A DNA stretch of 42,545 bases, taken from IMG/VR virus record IMGVR_UViG_3300037067_027672, positions 1 to 42,545 of that record. One strand, 5' to 3'. Positions 216 through 9,125 of the stretch are shown in pieces. Source of the DNA: a virus. The position numbers and the translations under genes were made by a program. The notes below the pieces were generated by a model. The model saw only the letters and a list, made by a program, of their open reading frames with translations, had not been told where the DNA came from and did no database searches. Position 1 is the stretch's first letter, and the number at the start of each line of letters is the position of its first letter.

Positions 216-710
216 ATGGCCCGGAAGGATTATCACGGAAGAATAGGAGAGGTTTATTTCGACTCCGTAGAACAGAAAAACAAGTTTTTTGGATTGGCTG
301 CAGCGAGGGGCTGCACTTTCTCGCGATATGCAATCAATATTTTGGAGGAAGCGGTAGGCCATGAGCAGCCAGCTATCCCTGCAACGGACTATGGACACCT
401 GGAGGACGAGAACAGGGAGCTGAGGCGGAGGATCGCGGAACTGTCGCGAGAGATCGAAACGATCAACGCAGAGCTGCAACGCCAGCGATACGCCGCTTTC
501 AATGAGGACACGGGCATCAATATCCAGTTTGATCCCGATCTCCTGGCAATCCTGCAGGCCGGACCGATCCACAGCCATGCTCTCTTGACAGCTTTGAAGA
601 TCAATCCCTCGGACACAACGCGAATGAGGGCTCTAGCTCAGCAGTTGGAGATTCTGGAAAGCACCAGGTTCATAGCTAAATCCAAGAACGGCTGGAGATG
701 GTTAAAGTGA
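216..710 (+). CDS. Integrase-associated regulator (RHH-like N-terminus, coiled coil, C-terminal winged-helix-like)
   Basis: Central coiled coil LEDENRELRRRIAELSREIETINAELQRQR; overlaps the integrase start by 13 nt; TATA-like elements at ~185-215. Confidence 0.6.
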   Translation: MARKDYHGRIGEVYFDSVEQKNKFFGLAAARGCTFSRYAINILEEAVGHEQPAIPATDYGHLEDENRELRRRIAELSREIETINAELQRQRYAAFNEDTGINIQFDPDLLAILQAGPIHSHALLTALKINPSDTTRMRALAQQLEILESTRFIAKSKNGWRWLK

Positions 711-1615
711 CCCTGCTGGAGGCTTGGGCCACTGATGCAGAGATTCGCGGGATGAGCCCCAGGACTATCCGGAATTATAGGTATCGCATAGCCAATTTTA
801 TGAGGTTCCTGGATGGCAAGGACATATTTGCAGTCAATAAAATAGATATCAGAGATTTTATAGAAGAGGCCCGAAAAAAGGGGCATTATACCGGATCAAT
901 CGCGTTCAGCCTCGCTAGTATAAGCAATTTCTATGATTGGGCCATTTTCGAGGAATTGACCGATAAGAATCCGGTGAAAGAGGTACGCTCGCGGTATTTG
1001 CATAGCTATAAGAAAGACAACGAGAAGCGAGACAGGCAGTTGATCAGCATAAAACAGGCAGCCAATATGATCGACTATATGGTCGATATCCGAGACAAGG
1101 CCATGATGACCGTCCTCTTCAAGACGGGCGTAAGGAGGAATGAGTTATTGAGCATGGAAGTCGATGATATCAATTGGAATGATTGGAGCATCACCCTGAA
1201 GCCAACCGCGAAACGTTCCAATAGAGTAGTCTTTTTCGACCAAGAGGCGGCCACTATACTGTCTCGTTGGCTAGCAGTTCGTGAAGAACGGAACAGAAAT
1301 GGAATCAAGGCATTATGGATATCAACGATTGGCCGCCCCGCAACAGAAAAAACAGTTATCTATATGATCAGTAAGGCGGGCATTGCCCTTGGTGTCCATA
1401 ACCCCAAATCCTCCAAGCTGGAAGAACATTTTAGCGCCCATTGCTGCCGTCATTGGTTCACCACCCACCTTCGCAGATCTGGGATGCCCCGTGAATTCAT
1501 CCAGGAGTTGAGGGGCGATGTTCGCAAAGAGGCAATCGATATCTATGATCACATTGATAGAGAAGAGCTGAGGAGAAGTTACCTGAGCCATATACCAAAA
1601 CTAGGCATAGCGTAA
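698..1615 (+). CDS. int: Tyrosine recombinase/integrase (archaeal XerA-like)
   Basis: Catalytic motifs KTGVRRNELL (R), HCCRHWF (HxxR) and ELRGD...IYDH (Y); N-terminal SAM-like domain (SPRTIRNYRYRIANF). Confidence 0.95.
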   Translation: MVKVTLLEAWATDAEIRGMSPRTIRNYRYRIANFMRFLDGKDIFAVNKIDIRDFIEEARKKGHYTGSIAFSLASISNFYDWAIFEELTDKNPVKEVRSRYLHSYKKDNEKRDRQLISIKQAANMIDYMVDIRDKAMMTVLFKTGVRRNELLSMEVDDINWNDWSITLKPTAKRSNRVVFFDQEAATILSRWLAVREERNRNGIKALWISTIGRPATEKTVIYMISKAGIALGVHNPKSSKLEEHFSAHCCRHWFTTHLRRSGMPREFIQELRGDVRKEAIDIYDHIDREELRRSYLSHIPKLGIA

Positions 1616-1900
1616 GCTACCCCTCCCCTTAAGGAGAGGGGCTTTCAGCAGCCCTGAGCAGATCTGTTTCAGAATCAGAGATCTACCCGGACCTCCAGGC
1701 CAGCCTACATGCGCCGACGAATCGCAGAGGTCCCCGTCTTGCGGGAACATTGGCCTCAGATCTGCCAAAGACGGCTTCAAATCGTGTTTCAGCCGTTCCC
1801 TTTCGGGCAAGAGTCTGGCAGAGCCGTACAGGATCAGCATCGAGCGGTTTACCGCGAGGGTGCCTAAGATGCCCAAGTACATACAGGAGATGGTTTGACA
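1612..1900 (+). ncRNA. Putative omega-RNA/HEARO-like scaffold (orphan)
   Basis: ~290 nt between the left-end hairpin and a GGAGA...ATG stub; several stems (CAGATCTG twice, CCC-TTTC-GGG, GCGG-TTTA-CCGC); position matches the omega-RNA of IscB elements; the 3' boundary is approximate. Confidence 0.5.
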
Positions 1901-1998
1901 TGTTAAATAGTTATGCAGAGCACCGCGAAAGTAAACTGGGAAGTGTACCCAATTCCTCCCACCCCCTAAAGGAGGCGGGCCTCCTTGGTGATTTACCG
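1612..1998 (+). mobile_element. Non-autonomous IS200/IS605-superfamily (IscB-type) miniature element
   Basis: Left end GTAAGCTACCCCTCCCCTTAAGGAGAGGGGC hairpin; right end TTCCTCCCACCCCCTAAAGGAGGCGGGCCTCCTTGG; no TSD; removing 1612-1998 restores the integrase end GGC ATA GCG TGA. Confidence 0.75.
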
Positions 1999-2041
1999 GT
2001 GACTACTCCCCTGCCTACGAAAATGGGATACAACCTGAGTT

Positions 2042-2106
2042 CCTGCAAATTAAGTCTGATAGCTGCAAAGAAAGTCACTCATTTTAGGGACTTTACATGC
2101 AAAGCC
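2042..2106 (+). repeat. Orphan copy of the transposon right end (direct repeat of 5900-5964)
   Basis: 65-bp alignment with 5900-5964 has 6 mismatches; the last 18 bp are a perfect inverted repeat of 2122-2139. Confidence 0.85.
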
Positions 2107-2324
2107 ACTAGGACTAGGACCGGCTTTGCATGTAAAGTCGGTTCTGCAACTAAAGTCTCGATCTTGCAACTAAAGTGACAGATATGTTCAGTAGATTGAT
2201 TATATTTCTAAGTAAGCAATTTTGGTTACTGAGGTCATACTTATGTATAAATCTATGGATGATAGTTGCATGTTGAGTTAGTTAGTCGCGTTTAAATAAT
2301 AAAACAATTAAAAATTTTGGCATA

Positions 2325-3254
2325 TTATCTCTGAACCCCTTGAACAGCGATTACGGCATTTGTACTTTGAATGGAGGCAATTCCATTATGATTTTCAACA
2401 ATCTTGAACGCCGGAGTATCTGTTAACGCTTGGATGCATGCATGATGGACGCTTAACACAGCATCTTGAAGCTTATCATCTGTTTCGAGGTATGATATAT
2501 TGATTTTTAGTTCATCTTTAGCTTTCTTTGCTGAAATATGACGCGCGTGGGATTTTGTCAGGGCGTGATCGGTGAGATCTTCTACAATCTTGTTTGCCTT
2601 GGTCGATGCATCGGCATCCCCGAGAAACATGCCACTTATTAACCAGTCTTTCACCATTTCCCGAGACCACGTTATTGCTTTTTCGCATTCGCCTATGAGT
2701 GTTGGGTGATATTTTGCGATGATTGGCTGCCAAAGATGGATCTTCGATGGAGTCGCCTGGATTTCAATACCTGCACGAGTAAATTCCTCGATTATCCCAT
2801 GTGCCGGAATTCCGTTGATCTGTGGGTCGATCGGGCCCAAGCTCGAATGCTTTCCCATAATAATTTCTTTGCAGGATAGTGCGATCATTGTTCCAGCGGA
2901 CATCGATATTTGGGGGACAATCGCACGGATGTCAGTGCCAAACATAGACCTGAGATAATCAACAATGGACTCGGTGGCTGCTGTGTCTCCGCCAGGAGTA
3001 TGAAGCAAAAGATCTAGGCCCTTGTCGCGGTTAAGTCCATGAATCACCGACATAAAGGATTCTTTATCACCATCATTAATCCCAAAATCCATGCCTTTTG
3101 ATCCAAGTAATGGCTTCTGAAGCCACCCCGAATAGTAGACTATGACATTTCTGTCTGTGGTTTCACTCAAATTTTTAAGATACTTTCGCCTAATCCCATC
3201 ATAAGGACTTCCAGCTGCTTTAGTTTCTTCGAGAATCTCTTTCCAATTCGGCAC
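2325..3254 (-). CDS. SDH-family (DUF114) ClpP/SppA-fold serine protease
   Basis: Motifs LLLHTPGGD, SMSAGTMIALSC, SSLGPIDPQI and late H (LTKSHARHIS). Confidence 0.85.
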   Translation of the reverse strand: MPNWKEILEETKAAGSPYDGIRRKYLKNLSETTDRNVIVYYSGWLQKPLLGSKGMDFGINDGDKESFMSVIHGLNRDKGLDLLLHTPGGDTAATESIVDYLRSMFGTDIRAIVPQISMSAGTMIALSCKEIIMGKHSSLGPIDPQINGIPAHGIIEEFTRAGIEIQATPSKIHLWQPIIAKYHPTLIGECEKAITWSREMVKDWLISGMFLGDADASTKANKIVEDLTDHALTKSHARHISAKKAKDELKINISYLETDDKLQDAVLSVHHACIQALTDTPAFKIVENHNGIASIQSTNAVIAVQGVQR

Positions 3255-3462
3255 CGTGATCGCTCTCCGTCAAGCCAATTCTGGTGTTGGCAGATAACTG
3301 GATAGTATAATAATCTTTGTCTTGATATTCTGACTCGTTCGTCAAATAATTTTGACCACGAAAAAGCAATCTTGCTCGATCTTCTTCGTTTTTAAGACCA
3401 AGTTTTTCAAAGATTTCAATTATTTCCATCTCAGATAGCATCTTCATTTTAATTACTCCCAT
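3220..3462 (-). CDS. Small acidic hypothetical protein, overlapping the protease start
   Basis: 80-aa ORF with upstream GGGAG; overlaps the protease gene by 35 nt. Confidence 0.55.
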   Translation of the reverse strand: MGVIKMKMLSEMEIIEIFEKLGLKNEEDRARLLFRGQNYLTNESEYQDKDYYTIQLSANTRIGLTESDHGAELERDSRRN

Positions 3463-3495
3463 TAAATTTATCTACCTATTGGATTTAATTGGATA

Positions 3496-3717
3496 TCAAT
3501 CTTCGCCTTGAGTTTTATGGTTTTCTTCACTAATAGATTTTTCTCTCTTCTTCGAACGTCGTTCGCGATCCCAATAAGGCGACTTACATTTTGGATTCGG
3601 GCAAACTTTCGGCGGCTTGTGTAGATCTCTCGGATACCACTCATGTCCACATCTCAAGCATCTTAATTTCATTGGTTCAAAATCGTGGCCGCACTGAGGA
3701 CATGTTACCATTATCAA
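3496..3717 (-). CDS. Small zinc-finger protein (probable transposase regulator)
   Basis: CPQC, CLRC and CPNPKC motifs with a basic tail; divergent from the transposase. Confidence 0.75.
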   Translation of the reverse strand: MIMVTCPQCGHDFEPMKLRCLRCGHEWYPRDLHKPPKVCPNPKCKSPYWDRERRSKKREKSISEENHKTQGED

Positions 3718-3759
3718 TACCTTATTTCAATCATTATAGTATATCACGTAAATCACTCA

Positions 3760-3830
3760 TCAAAAGTATATAATCCTATTGGTATATATACCACTAGGGA
3801 TATATACCTTGAATTACATAGTACAGGTGG
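3760..3830. promoter_or_regulatory. Divergent promoter/operator between Zn-finger gene and transposase
   Basis: Perfect palindrome GGTATATATACC (3781-3792), near-copy GATATATACC (3799-3808), TATA-like AGTATATAA nearby. Confidence 0.5.
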
Positions 3831-3836
3831 TAAATT

Positions 3837-5048
3837 GTGATGACCGATATGCGAGACCTGCGAGGAAAAGCAATAGCAGACCAAGGCGATCAAATCAAGA
3901 AGGTCAACGACCATTCTTTCAAGGTGAAATCCCAATCAGGAAGCAAGGTCTACGAAGTCAAAACAACGCCAAACGGCATGACTTGCACCTGCCCCAATTT
4001 CGTCTATCGCGGCGGAAAGTGTAAACACACACAGGCGACTCGCTATTACCTCGAAATCGAGAAAGATACACCCCAGGGCGTCGTTACTGAAAAGGTCCAC
4101 CTAACCTATAAACAGGCATGGGATGCCTACAACGCCGCGCAAATGGCAGAGGTCAAGCTATTTGATGAGCTGTTGAAAGACCTGGTAAAGACCATTCCAG
4201 AACCGGAGCAGACAATGGGAAGGCCACGCATACCCCTTCATGAATCCCTGTTCTGCGCGATCCAAAAGGTCTATTCGCAGCTTTCCAGCCGCCGCGCGCA
4301 TGGCCTATTCCAGAACGCGACCGAAAAAGGCCAAATCGAGCATGCCCCCAACTTCAACCAACCATCAATCCTCTTTAGGAACCCCGAGATAACGCCAATC
4401 CTACATGAACTTGTCACTCTATCCGCCTTGCCAGTTGCGGGAATCGAGGTTGATTTTGCTGTAGATTCTACTGGATTTCGTACAACCACATTCAACGCCT
4501 ATAATGGCGTTAAACATGGGCAAAAGAAAGAACATCAATGGGTAAAAGCTCACCTTTGCGCTGGGGTCAAAACTAACATCGTCGCGGCTGTGGCAATCAC
4601 AGATAGCAATGGAGGCGATTCACCTCAGTTTGGGCATCTGGTTAAGAAGACGGCGGAAGGCTTCAAGATCAACGAGGTATCTGCTGACTTGGCTTACTCC
4701 TCGCGCCTCAATTTGCAATTAGCAGCAAACGCAGGCGGTAAGGCATACATCCCATTCAAGAAAAGCGCGACTGGAAGGGCAGGCGGATCAGCTCTTTGGA
4801 AGAAGATGTTCCATTACTTCCAGCTCAACTGTGATAATTTTATGGACCACTATCATAAGAGGAGCAACATCGAGGCTACCAATGCGGCCACAAAGAGGAA
4901 GTTCGGTGAGACACTGAAGTCCAAGAATCCTGTTGCTCAGGTAAACGAGCTGTTGGCTAAGATCATTGCATACAACCTGACTGTAGTGATTCATGAGATG
5001 TACGAGAACGGGATTGATCCAGAGTTCTTACATCCACGCCAAGATTGA
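3837..5048 (+). CDS. SWIM-zinc-finger + DDE transposase (IS5/IS903-like)
   Basis: SWIM motif CTCPNF...KCKH; DDE motifs AVDSTGF, WVKAH, SADLAYSS, YHKRSNIEAT..TKRKFG. Confidence 0.9.
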   Translation: MMTDMRDLRGKAIADQGDQIKKVNDHSFKVKSQSGSKVYEVKTTPNGMTCTCPNFVYRGGKCKHTQATRYYLEIEKDTPQGVVTEKVHLTYKQAWDAYNAAQMAEVKLFDELLKDLVKTIPEPEQTMGRPRIPLHESLFCAIQKVYSQLSSRRAHGLFQNATEKGQIEHAPNFNQPSILFRNPEITPILHELVTLSALPVAGIEVDFAVDSTGFRTTTFNAYNGVKHGQKKEHQWVKAHLCAGVKTNIVAAVAITDSNGGDSPQFGHLVKKTAEGFKINEVSADLAYSSRLNLQLAANAGGKAYIPFKKSATGRAGGSALWKKMFHYFQLNCDNFMDHYHKRSNIEATNAATKRKFGETLKSKNPVAQVNELLAKIIAYNLTVVIHEMYENGIDPEFLHPRQD

Positions 5049-5055
5049 ATATTAA

Positions 5056-5436
5056 TCAAGCAGCAACGCACCGAGACAACATGGCATTTCTAATAACTTG
5101 CCTCTCTGTCTCTGGTTTTTCTGGCTTATATGATGTGGTTCGCATAAACCATCTCAGCAACGGATGGAATAATAGAACCGTTATGTTAAGCCCAGGCGCA
5201 TATACCCCGCGATTGAATTTAAACAGAACCAATTCTATAGTTAGGAGGCCTATTGCAACAAGCAAGGCTATAACGCCAGATCCCCACGCCGCCAGGCTTA
5301 CATAAATCGCCGAACCTGTAATCAATGCAAGAACCAGTCCATAGAGAGTTAATGCCAATAGCTTCTCCAGTAATCTTGCTGCCCTACATGTTCGCCCACG
5401 AATTCTGCACGAATTACAAGCTGGCATTTCTCTCAC
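5056..5436 (-). CDS. Two-TM membrane protein with N-terminal CxxC (transposon passenger)
   Basis: Two hydrophobic helices; likely start at MPACNSC after a GGGGTGA RBS. Confidence 0.5.
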   Translation of the reverse strand: MREMPACNSCRIRGRTCRAARLLEKLLALTLYGLVLALITGSAIYVSLAAWGSGVIALLVAIGLLTIELVLFKFNRGVYAPGLNITVLLFHPLLRWFMRTTSYKPEKPETERQVIRNAMLSRCVAA

Positions 5437-5476
5437 CCCACTAATAACAAGCTAATTACTAGTTAATTAAAGTTAC

Positions 5477-5755
5477 TCATTTGCCGTTTACCCGGTCTTT
5501 TAAAAAACTTGATATGTGTATAATCGTGAAAAACAGGAATATTATTAACGTAGCAACATGTGAATATTCTAATATTAATCTTATTATATTTCCTTCGGCC
5601 ATACCCATGCAAATAATTACTCTAGTTAATATATATAGTATACCTAAGATAACTAATACAGAGATCCCATCTAATATTAGAGTAGTAATAAGCTCAATAG
5701 TAAACTCCGCTTTCTTTCTTAAATTCGATCTCAAATTACTTGGAGCAGGCTCCAT
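5477..5755 (-). CDS. Two-TM membrane protein (transposon passenger)
   Basis: Two hydrophobic helices; E-x2-H-x3-L-x-IFL motif resembles that of 33574-33885. Confidence 0.65.
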   Translation of the reverse strand: MEPAPSNLRSNLRKKAEFTIELITTLILDGISVLVILGILYILTRVIICMGMAEGNIIRLILEYSHVATLIIFLFFTIIHISSFLKDRVNGK

Positions 5756-5964
5756 GGTCCAGAAATCCCAACTCAGTTGGTAAATACTTTGCGCCCCCGG
5801 TTCAATCCGTCCTGGCTAAAGAGAACTTCACCCAATTGTTTTGCAATCCATGCAGATGATGGCAACCAAATTTATCTCAAATTACTGATATTAGTACGCC
5901 CTGCAAATTAAGTCTGATGTCTGCAAAGGAAGTCCCTCATTTTAGGGACTTTCTATGCAAAGCC

Positions 5965-6041
5965 GGTAGGCAGAAACGTGGGCAAAGGACTCCGCTTTCA
6001 TCCCCACCCTGAAGGATGGGGACTTCCCGCTTCGTCCTTCG
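5965..6041 (+). mobile_element. Right-end remnant of a second IS200/IS605 (IscB/TnpB-type) element
   Basis: Hairpin CCCCACCCTGAAGGATGGGG (6002-6021) read as AFIPTLKDGDFPLRP, the kind of peptide that overlaps IscB-type right ends. Confidence 0.55.
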
Positions 6042-6117
6042 CAATCCTACAAGTTAACCAGATGCAGGATGTCGCATTAGCTAAGCCCAAATAAAAAATA
6101 CAGAAAAGATGTACTAG

Positions 6118-6684
6118 CTAATATGTTAACTCGTAGAATGTTAATCTACGTATTCCCATATAGCTGGTGTCACCATGATTATTTGCGCATTTTAGAGCGT
6201 AATAACGATATGGTGTTATTGGTGATGTTACTGCTATTTCATAGAATAGAGCACCATCATAAGCCTGGGTATGTCGTGTCATCGAAGCAGGAGACTTCTC
6301 GATAGTCGTCCACCCGGTATCTGTTGCGTATGTGAGATTTGAAAAGCTACTGGAGCTATTAGAGCCCTGAAGAGTAAAACCGTTTACTCCGCGTATTGTA
6401 TTGTATCCAGCATTGTGATAGTTGCAATAGACTATCTTTCCAATTACCTTTGCAGAACCCAAATCCACATGAAATCGTTGGCTCGTTGGATTTCCAACAT
6501 CGCTCATCCAGCAGTAAGGATATGCGTCTCCAGATAGCGGTTGGCTTGGATCTAAAGCTTTATGTGGCTCCATTTCAAAAGTGTTTGTAGTGGCCTTCAC
6601 GTAAGTACTGTTATATGCTGGGGGATAGACCGCCTTATAACTCGTTGGTATTAAAGGTATTCGCCTTAATATTCGCATACTCAT
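6118..6684 (-). CDS. Discoidin/F5-8 type C-like carbohydrate-binding protein (receptor-binding accessory)
   Basis: CWMS...QRFHVDLGSAKVIGKIVYCNY...GFTLQGSN...YRYYAL pattern; ATGA overlap with the tail fibre gene. Confidence 0.7.
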   Translation of the reverse strand: MSMRILRRIPLIPTSYKAVYPPAYNSTYVKATTNTFEMEPHKALDPSQPLSGDAYPYCWMSDVGNPTSQRFHVDLGSAKVIGKIVYCNYHNAGYNTIRGVNGFTLQGSNSSSSFSNLTYATDTGWTTIEKSPASMTRHTQAYDGALFYEIAVTSPITPYRYYALKCANNHGDTSYMGIRRLTFYELTY

Positions 6685-9125
6685 CTCTCCGACACAAATA
6701 TTAGAGATACTGTGAGAAATGTAGAATCGCCACTTCCGCCTTGTGTGGTTCTCAGCTCAATGGCATCATTCAGGTCTATCCTGTAATTGCTGGCATTTAT
6801 GCCGGTGGTGGTATGTGTCCAACTTGTGGCAACTGGCAGTCCGGTGTTGGAATTGTCGGTTCCGACTATGTTGCCCTCGATGGAAGCGGTCACTTTCGGA
6901 GCAGTGCCGCTATCAGCAGCCAGCGCTCGGTGGCTGATCCTCACCAGGTATGCAGGCGGCCCATGCCAGGGAGAGAAAGATTTTTGGAATGTTTGAATCA
7001 GGTTGGTCTTTGCTTCTGTGGCATAGGCCCCTGGAATAAGATAATCCACCTGGCAGACCATTTCGGGTGGCCCAGTCCATATCATATAGATAGTTCCTGA
7101 CAGCGGCGGGCCTGCGATGGTTAGCAGATTAGACGTTATAGCTGTGACAATCCCAAAATATGGTCCGCCTGCACTGGTCAGGTATTTTATTGGCGTGCCT
7201 ATCGGTATTGCATTTACCATGTTATATAGCATGGTTATGCTGGAAGAGCTGGCAGGAGTGGAGTAGAACACGCCCCATTGTGCAACCCATCTGCTGTTAT
7301 ATGCTACCAGGCCCGGTCCGGTGCAATCATATGTAAATAGACCACCGCCGATCGACATTGCCCCGACTTTTGGGGCGCTGCATTTCTCAGAGATTACTGT
7401 GGAATGTGGCGGTATATAAAATATATATGTGTCATAAGCATCGGCCACAAATTCGCAGCCTGTAAATTTCAATTCAGCAGTTATTGTCTCTTCAAACTCT
7501 TTCAGATATACGCACGCACCCGGAACCCTCACTTCCTGTTGCTGCTCGTTCAGGTAAGAGTAGGTATATGCATGGAACGTACAGTTATATGCCTCGACTA
7601 CCGCGGAGCCAAACACTTTCAGAGCCTGGAAAGCATCGAAGGTGCAATCTCTGAATTTGACCTGATCATAGCTTCCATCTTGTATATACCCGCCGCCATC
7701 GATGTAGGTCACATACTGTGAGGTCTTATTTGCAGTGAACCTGCACCCCACGATATCGATGTTTCGACTGCAATGTACCTGTAGTCCGTAGGAATGGACG
7801 ATAGCTCCAGTTATGTCCATGGTGCAACCGGAAACGACGCATCCATTGATGCACCAGATAGTGATTCCAGCGCGTTTGCAGGTTACTCCGGTGATGGAAA
7901 TATTATCATATTCGCGAGTAGCGTAATCAGTGTTACCCAATACCTCCAAACCTATGCTGCCATCGTAGATGACAGAATTAGATATGGAAACATCAGCCGT
8001 AGTATCCAAGCATATTGCAGATTTATAGCAATTCTTCGCATATATTCCAGAAATTATAACACCTTTCGTTGGCCCGCTACCATTATTACCAAGATAAGCC
8101 CCATAGCCAAAGGAATCTTTCAGCTCGACATTCAATATTTTCTCGTTGGTTCGAACGCTTCCAGAGAGGTATAGGCCCGGCCCATCTATTGCTGAGACTA
8201 TCTCCTGATTAGCTCGATTCCCATCCAACGTCAGATTCGCCAGAGTGAAGGACGTAAATCCATTATTCATATCGCCGGTAGTTCGATTCAGAATCAGAAC
8301 TGCCAGGTGGCCGGAATAGTGCTGGTTATTGGCCATTTTCAGGATGGTTACACCAGGACCAGACCCGTACACATGGCAATTCTTTCCTTCCATTGCCGGG
8401 CCAAAGGCATAGTAAAATGGGTTGGTCGTACTATTATTTGATAGATAGAAGAGCTTGTTAGCTTCCAGGATGTAGGTTCCTGGACCTATGCCTATGCTTC
8501 CATTATTCGGGCATCCAGCAGCAGCGGCATCGAATACGTCGGTATCATCAACACCCGCTATACCGCTTTCAAGAATGGTGCCGTCCGCTTTCCTGGCTAT
8601 GATCTCAGTGCCTCTCTGAAAGATCTCAACAGAATGTATAATGTTGAAATCTGCAGGAATAGCAGGCACCACAATGTTCCGGATATGTTCATTTCGGATG
8701 CTGGCTGCATTGGCTGGGACCATGATCTCAGCCAGAAGCAGCCCGTCATTGGTGCTGAAATCAGCCGGATAGGGCTCTTCCCATTTCTGCCAAATATCCT
8801 CCATCATGGGCTTCTTTGCGCTGGCAGCGCCTTTCAGAATGGCTAGATTACCGTCAGGTGCTAAATAGAGCAAATCGATTCTAGGGTTGGAGTCCGAAGC
8901 AGCTATTGGGACATTGGTTGTGCTCGTTTTCGCTCCGACGATCCCATTTAAGACATAGCTGAACGGCCCTACATCAATGCTCATATTAGCGCCTGCTGCT
9001 CTTTCGGTGATCGCTGGCGGCTTGTCAGGTATCACATGGCTGCCAGCGTGGGCTCCCAACAAGCTAGCAAGATGAGGATAACGAAATACATGATCCCTAA
9101 GCACATCAGTTTTCATCGAAGGCAT
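6681..9125 (-). CDS. Tail fibre/spike with parallel beta-helix (pectate-lyase-like) domain
   Basis: N-terminal virion-anchor segment (PRIDLLYL); DDTDVFDAA...IGPGTYIL, VYGSGPGVTILK, LTLDGNRANQ and repeated ISGxxxxNC beta-helix rungs. Confidence 0.8.
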   Translation of the reverse strand: MPSMKTDVLRDHVFRYPHLASLLGAHAGSHVIPDKPPAITERAAGANMSIDVGPFSYVLNGIVGAKTSTTNVPIAASDSNPRIDLLYLAPDGNLAILKGAASAKKPMMEDIWQKWEEPYPADFSTNDGLLLAEIMVPANAASIRNEHIRNIVVPAIPADFNIIHSVEIFQRGTEIIARKADGTILESGIAGVDDTDVFDAAAAGCPNNGSIGIGPGTYILEANKLFYLSNNSTTNPFYYAFGPAMEGKNCHVYGSGPGVTILKMANNQHYSGHLAVLILNRTTGDMNNGFTSFTLANLTLDGNRANQEIVSAIDGPGLYLSGSVRTNEKILNVELKDSFGYGAYLGNNGSGPTKGVIISGIYAKNCYKSAICLDTTADVSISNSVIYDGSIGLEVLGNTDYATREYDNISITGVTCKRAGITIWCINGCVVSGCTMDITGAIVHSYGLQVHCSRNIDIVGCRFTANKTSQYVTYIDGGGYIQDGSYDQVKFRDCTFDAFQALKVFGSAVVEAYNCTFHAYTYSYLNEQQQEVRVPGACVYLKEFEETITAELKFTGCEFVADAYDTYIFYIPPHSTVISEKCSAPKVGAMSIGGGLFTYDCTGPGLVAYNSRWVAQWGVFYSTPASSSSITMLYNMVNAIPIGTPIKYLTSAGGPYFGIVTAITSNLLTIAGPPLSGTIYMIWTGPPEMVCQVDYLIPGAYATEAKTNLIQTFQKSFSPWHGPPAYLVRISHRALAADSGTAPKVTASIEGNIVGTDNSNTGLPVATSWTHTTTGINASNYRIDLNDAIELRTTQGGSGDSTFLTVSLIFVSER

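Follow-up and report, generated by a model that had tools for sequence, protein, structure and literature searches.

IS200/IS605 elements that have lost their genes but retained a guide RNA have been described before. The closest described ones are the PATEs of Geobacillus stearothermophilus (Meers et al., PMC10055086), which carry a hairpin near each end, lack inverted repeats, insert after a TAM without target duplication, retain an omega-RNA region and need both TnpA and TnpB in trans; PATEs often encode omega-RNAs that are used in trans (PMC10055086). In the TnpB elements of the IS1341 group, among them those of ISDra2 TnpB and AmaTnpB (PMC10278001), the RNA region lies at the 3′ side, the TAM stands 5′ of the left end and the guide is taken from the flank beyond the right end; the TAM of AmaTnpB is TCAC (PMC10278001). 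IscB/HEARO elements belong to the same transposon superfamily and share the TnpA-dependent mobility, but in them the RNA occupies the left end and precedes an HNH-RuvC gene. IStrons, which combine an IS200/IS605 or IS607 element with a group I intron (PMC4227781), also spare the genes that they enter or adjoin, in their case by RNA splicing.

Here we analysed a 387-bp miniature at positions 1612–1998 (minus strand) of an IMG/VR provirus record of 42.5 kb, the whole 42,545-nt stretch being referred to as the window. The miniature has the structural and insertional properties of PATEs listed above, would likewise need TnpA and TnpB in trans, and is a virus-borne PATE of that class; it differs from the described PATEs in that its host is archaeal (Methanotrichaceae), most copies were found in virus or provirus contigs, its RNA is expanded compared with the related full-length elements, and it sits on a stop codon. 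With the IS1341 group it shares a homologous right end, a 3′ RNA region, a TAM 5′ of the left end that is identical to the TCAC of AmaTnpB, and a guide that would be supplied by the sequence flanking the right end, but it has no tnpB gene. Neither the left-end RNA nor the HNH-RuvC gene of IscB/HEARO elements was found in it, and unlike the IStrons it has no intron and swaps stop codons. As a whole, the locus is most likely a gene-less TnpB-type element with an omega-RNA-like scaffold that would be moved and used in trans by host proteins.

The element adjoins the 3′-end of a tyrosine integrase ORF of 305 aa (698–1615, plus strand; PF00589 and PF02899). The relatives of this integrase occur mostly in Methanothrix/Methanotrichaceae genomes, which points to a host of the virus in this group. 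The integrase ends GCG TAA; the GTAA at 1612–1615, made up of the last base of its Ala305 codon and the stop TAA, consists of element bases and opens a stretch that has a hairpin close to either end. When the C-terminus was compared with about 100 related integrases, nearly all were found to end ...PQLGI* or one residue longer, so that LGIA* represents a natural length and not a truncation.

By searching with a pattern in which the final codons of the integrase run straight into the bases that follow 1998, we found the empty site in a single contig of the metagenome collection, Ga0123334_1013448 (L128, minus strand), and none in IMG/VR. L128 contains ...GGCATAGCGTGACTAC..., in which window position 1611 is joined exactly to 1999, and reads ...CATATACCAAAACTAGGCATAGCGTGACTACTCCCCTGCCTACG..., namely window 1590–1611 directly followed by 1999 onward, the junction read being given also as ...CCAAAACTAGGCATAGCGTGACTACTCCCCTGCC.... 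The contig is 98.5% identical to the window over 47–1611 and 84.5% identical over 1999–2205, with the bases nearest the junction matching. The filled and empty alleles differ by exactly 387 bp (1612–1998), target-site duplication is absent (the flanks being ...CATAGC on the left and GTGACT on the right), and both alleles give an integrase with the LGIA* ending, through GCG TGA in the empty one, whose TGA (2000–2002) lies within the TAM, and through GCG TAA in the filled one. This polymorphism shows that the element is mobile. The preliminary description had proposed a 387-bp insertion at 1612–1998, next to a short motif, without target duplication and without altering the integrase protein; L128 and the family-defined ends confirm these limits to the base, and the comparison of the two alleles bears out the rest. 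The empty site predicted there, ...GGCATAGCGTGA, exists in L128, in which the expected GGC ATA GCG TGA with the same LGIA* ending is seen.

The junction leaves an ambiguity of 2 nt (GT), a 2-nt microhomology, which is settled by the family alignment, since each copy ends ...GTAG(C/A/T)TTAC and is then followed by variable flank. Boundaries shifted by 1–2 nt (TAM TCA, 388-nt element) were rejected, given that the flank after TTAC varies among copies and that only 1612–1998 gives the empty allele without extra indels. An explanation of the insertion by a tRNA or att site was also set aside: the sole tRNA call lies at 8402, and the empty allele shows a discrete insertion.

Around the integrase gene itself, two further observations were made. 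Many relatives have a second copy of the last ~100–200 nt of the integrase, 0.5–3 kb downstream of the intact gene and in frame through ...PQLGI* (L020, L022, L028, L029, L035, L044 and L093, all Methanothrix genomes), which suggests either tandem integrations or an att site overlapping the 3′-end of the integrase gene; a search of the window with its first 2.3 kb showed no duplicate of this kind. In a distant integrase relative (L072:3909-3925), TGACTACCCCC directly follows the last codon and resembles the downstream flank of the window, TGACTACTCCCC, a likeness that may be due to chance.

The origin of the element was evident from its relatives in host genomes. BLAST searching with the 387 bp matched the two ends in 22 of 105 Methanotrichaceae genomes. 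In genome G070 the two ends are separated by 1.28 kb and flank a 406-aa TnpB ORF (L104:1545-2765) having the PF01385 OrfB_IS605 and PF07282 Cas12f1-like TNB domains and no HNH, and genome G038 has at least 12 copies of the full-length tnpB subfamily. The multi-copy end homologs that the preliminary description had suggested looking for in Methanosarcinales genomes exist, flanking tnpB genes in Methanotrichaceae; the iscB-bearing full-length copies that it had expected did not appear, the only full-length elements sharing both ends being those that encode TnpB without HNH. Projected onto the window, the enclosed tnpB runs from right to left, in the sense of the minus strand, which places the element on the minus strand with its right end at 1612 and its left end at 1998. 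Empty sites of these host copies, which would have fixed the TAM independently, were not recovered: the exact pattern for the G070 copy had no match in the 105 genomes, and flank searches for one G038 copy gave orthologous genes with diverged intergenic DNA.

Three parts make up the miniature: the left end (~75 nt), a brief AT-rich segment that contains a TATA-like box, and ~270 nt ending at the right end. Its last ~125 nt align plainly to the 3′-end of full-length tnpB and the right end, and upstream of these a degenerate, gapped similarity to the DPAYTSQ/zinc-finger/RuvC-III coding region is found; BLASTX of the element recovers only the last 23 TnpB residues. Near the left end lies an imperfect hairpin, CCCGCCTCC-TTTA-GGGGGTGGG in element sense (1958–1979, minus strand; hairpin pairs 35–54 with compensatory changes), and near the right end lies hairpin H14 (1619–1642, minus strand; 5 of 10 pairs changed on both sides), followed by GTAGCTTAC, the last four bases of which, TTAC (1615–1612), are the right cleavage motif. 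The two end hairpins change together between subfamilies. Terminal inverted repeats are absent, the ends being different (CGGTAAATCACC... at the left and ...GGGTAGCTTAC at the right). The TATA-like box, CTATTTAAC in element sense (1902–1910, minus strand), stands ~25–30 nt upstream of the structured RNA described below and is conserved as ATTTAAC or ATTTAT in the alignments; it is a candidate archaeal promoter.

The flanks were equally regular. The trinucleotide TCA 5′ of the left end is invariant in more than 20 copies; with its fourth base this flank reads TCAC at each of the eight independent insertions of miniatures and TCAT for the full-length family. At the right end TTAC is constant, with TGAC as the single exception, and all copies read ...GGGTAG(C/A/T)TTAC and then continue into unrelated flank. 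Because the right end is fixed at TTAC, the empty allele puts the C of TCAC in the flank, and the TAM is therefore 5′-TCAC (1999–2002, minus strand; GTGA on the plus strand). Reverse-complemented, the GTGA noted earlier is accordingly this 5′ TAM, which precedes the left end, and the RTGA expected next to other copies was found as GTGA in the miniatures and ATGA in the full-length family.

These results bear directly on the class of the element, which had first been described as an internally deleted IS200/IS605 element of IscB type, which would put its omega-RNA on the plus strand, at a left (5′) end, and the motif in the flank on the 3′ side. The IS200/IS605-like ends, the missing target duplication and the short flanking motif fit that reading, and the assignment to IS200/IS605 and the internal deletion both stand. 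As regards IscB, all full-length elements sharing the ends encode TnpB with no HNH, the conserved structure forms on the minus strand, and Rfam gave no significant family over window 1400–2400, its only listed match being a chance miRNA (E 0.25). The orientation turned out to be the opposite, with the RNA at the right end (1612) and the TAM 5′ of the left end, and an IscB-type miniature is now highly improbable. In the best explanation, which we regard as probable, the minus-strand element derives from a Methanotrichaceae IS200/IS605 transposon of the IS1341-like (tnpB-only) kind and has lost its gene.

Copies of the miniature were found in both viruses and hosts. A sibling virus record of 55 kb (L002/L148), with an overall identity of 98.4% to the window, carries the insertion at the identical position, its element copy being 98.45% identical. 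Copies of 85–94% identity occupy other sites in virus contigs (L147, L149, L151 and L152/L153), fragments occur in L150/L154 and L155, and related miniatures in total were found in at least seven other virus contigs; in host genomes, the identities were 88% in G038 (three copies) and 71% in G045. The fragment in L154 and L150 (IMGVR_UViG_3300049644_000061 and 3300049806_000017) is a solo 131-nt right end, 92% identical to window 1612–1742, with neither a left end nor an upstream tnpB. In G038, one miniature (L098:1275-1500) lies within the 3′-end of a gene for a HicA-like toxin and disrupts it; a HicB-like gene is adjacent, and the HicA-like ORF now reads through into the miniature. Genome G047 holds a 288-bp miniature of the full-length subfamily (L105:1499-1787; TAM TCAT, right end ending CTGAC), whose internal sequence is unrelated to the RNA of the window, and gene-less derivatives therefore arose more than once.

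To the right-end ~269 nt of the element (1612–1880, minus strand) we assign a structured RNA gene of 14 helices, homologous to the TnpB omega-RNA scaffold, on the basis of RNAalifold, pair counts and a covariance model. The alignment comprised ten miniatures, those of the window, its sibling and four other virus contigs, three copies from G038 and one from G045. Across these ten, 99.0% of the cells of the 88 pairs in the 14 helices are paired, and 18 pairs have changed on both sides, compared with 7.6 ± 1.4 in shuffles (0 of 500 reaching this) and 1–4 in slid controls, in which the partners were moved by 1–3 columns. G-U pairs account for 16% of the cells and the complementarity of the same pairs on the opposite strand is only 83%, which assigns the structure to the minus-strand RNA. 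Between the window and its sibling the element differs by 6 nt, three of which keep one stem paired (CCCG/CGGG to CCTG/CAGG), as one compensatory pair and one G-U to A-U change. This substitution pattern shows an RNA structure evidently held under selection on the minus strand.

Coding capacity is a very poor alternative source of this conservation. A minus-strand frame is indeed open over nearly the whole element, for instance as a 93-aa ORF at 1601–1882, and it stays open over 117–224 codons in most copies, as a small protein would require; but its ATG is not conserved, the G038 copies are frame-shifted near the C-terminus, and substitutions at paired sites give P/L/Q and G/R/W replacements. 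The open frame is most likely a survival of the ancestral tnpB reading frame (...SGLLKAPLL*), and a small protein as the product of the element has hardly any probability. The ancestral coding sequence has been cut to ~270 nt, and what remains now evolves under RNA constraints only.

It is likewise unlikely, though less so, that the element is an inert, decaying remnant that TnpA can still move and whose RNA has no role with TnpB, the pairing reflecting shared descent or single-stranded DNA signals for transposition. A modest folding z-score (only −1.7 for single-sequence folding), the truncated 131-nt right-end remnants in other virus contigs, and the failure to find in the 105 genomes a cognate TnpB with the expanded RNA would agree with decay. 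The compensatory changes, however, also fall in internal helices (H5, H9 and H12), far from the end hairpins needed by TnpA; the invariant G-U pairs and the G-C to G-U changes fit only an RNA made from one strand; and since the amino-acid changes at paired sites are non-conservative, coding does not explain them.

The relationship of this RNA to the omega-RNA of full-length elements was quantified using the covariance model R1, built from the miniatures. R1 scored 323.7 bits at the window and 250–324 bits on the miniatures, and the 3′-ends of full-length tnpB elements reached 37–63 bits (E 1e-10 to 1e-17), making the distribution bimodal. In the alignment fitted by the model, helices H1, H8, H12, H13 and H14 are present in the full-length elements, at least H1, H8, H12 and H14 covary there, and helices H9–H11 (1704–1748) are extra in the miniatures and missing from the full-length elements, as is much of the 5′ domain. 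Compared with full-length tnpB elements, the miniature RNA therefore has a 46-nt insertion and a remodelled 5′ domain, and by these scores and shared helices it is an expanded relative of the omega-RNA of the family. Among the 105 Methanotrichaceae genomes, no full-length tnpB element turned up with the expanded RNA (H9–H11 and the larger 5′ domain), and, given the bimodal scores, no cognate TnpB was found. As it evolves without coding constraint and has gained helices, such an RNA reveals the parts that a TnpB guide scaffold cannot do without.

The gained helices could also mark a new function, the element being a mobile non-coding RNA with another job, for example regulating the 3′-end of the integrase mRNA in antisense or serving the virus. 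The insertion and the remodelled 5′ domain that full-length tnpB elements lack, the occurrence of copies mostly in virus contigs and the antisense orientation of a read-through transcript to the integrase agree with this. Nevertheless, the copies lie at unrelated sites, next to different genes and in intergenic DNA, and so share no common antisense target, and the helices conserved with tnpB elements are precisely the guide-proximal ones. We consider such another job quite improbable and retain the omega-RNA-like guide scaffold as the preferred reading.

Such a scaffold would depend on proteins supplied in trans. Searches of the window and of its 55-kb sibling record gave no match to TnpB or Y1 TnpA. 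Genome G038 has 49 TnpB and 7 TnpA (PF01797) matches, and G070 and G045 also have both. Two Methanothrix-type virus records, one of them a complete genome that has terminal repeats, carry miniatures together with intact TnpB genes of other subfamilies (L216, G118:C1:1982-3037, and L217, G120:C1:60165-61265), whose identities to the TnpB of G070 are 39% and 34%. These virus-encoded TnpBs were rejected as partners, as their 3′-ends do not match R1 and are unrelated to the miniature RNA. That host TnpA and TnpB are used is what we infer from the virus having neither gene and from the PATE precedent (PMC10055086).

The element inserted as a unit 3′ of TCAC, turning the stop TGA into TAA. For its movement and action, the following course may be proposed, in which a host Y1 TnpA would move it as single-stranded DNA. 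Its RNA would continue for ~16–20 nt into the flank, where it is antisense to the 3′-end of the integrase gene; judging from TnpB biology (PMC10055086, PMC10278001), the predicted guide segment is GCUAUGCCUAGUUUUGGUAU (1592–1611, minus strand), antisense to the last integrase codons, and this segment together with TCAC matches the empty allele. Loaded in trans onto a host TnpB, the extended RNA would direct cutting of TCAC + GCTATGCCTAG... (the target also being written TCAC + GCTATGCC...), that is, of the empty allele carried by sibling viruses and seen in L128. Recombinational repair after the cut could then keep or spread the element. The filled and empty allele pair in close Methanothrix viruses offers a substrate on which to test whether an orphan guide RNA and a host TnpB bias inheritance.

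The end sequences of the family explain how an element can sit on a stop codon without cost. Read on the opposite strand, the TAM TCAY is RTGA and the right end TTAC is GTAA, so that insertion at the TGA stop of a convergent gene is silent (NNR TGA to NNG TAA). The same landing was observed at genes in several genomes. Among 34 independent right-end flanks, the frame ending in the TAA of the element is open over at least 90 codons at nine, against 5 of 68 control frames (Fisher p = 0.013), and seven of the eight ORFs tested have Pfam domains running to their C-termini, the domains being ribonucleotide reductase, periplasmic binding protein, bifunctional nuclease, HxlR, rubrerythrin-like, zinc-finger-like and DUF2551. 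For three full-length copies having both flanks, the inferred changes were GGA TGA to GGG TAA, TTA to TTG and CTA to CTG. Most miniatures themselves are not on stop codons, in what is a small sample. Tolerance by selection is the simplest explanation of this landing. A further-reaching proposal has two parts: that the ends evolved to mimic stop codons, with TGA sites occupied above what chance or simple tolerance would give, and that the virus miniatures act as a gene drive or weapon against rival viruses, their guide RNA programming host TnpB to cut co-infecting siblings with the empty integrase-stop allele. That allele does exist in nature (L128); taken jointly, we put the two parts forward as a tentative and rather doubtful suggestion. 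In the literature searched, no description of stop-codon targeting by IS605/TnpB elements was found.

Just downstream of the miniature, the window shows what fits a second mobile insertion with cargo, at 2073–6080. The sibling virus record lacks this segment altogether, and an 89% direct repeat (window 2042–2112 and 5900–5970) brackets a ClpP-like SDH protease (2325–3254) and a SWIM + DDE transposase (3837–5048). Farther on, ARAGORN called a 96-nt tRNA-Ile (GAT) at window 8402–8497 (plus strand), inside an 814-aa minus-strand ORF (6681–9125); this may be a false call or a tRNA with an intron.
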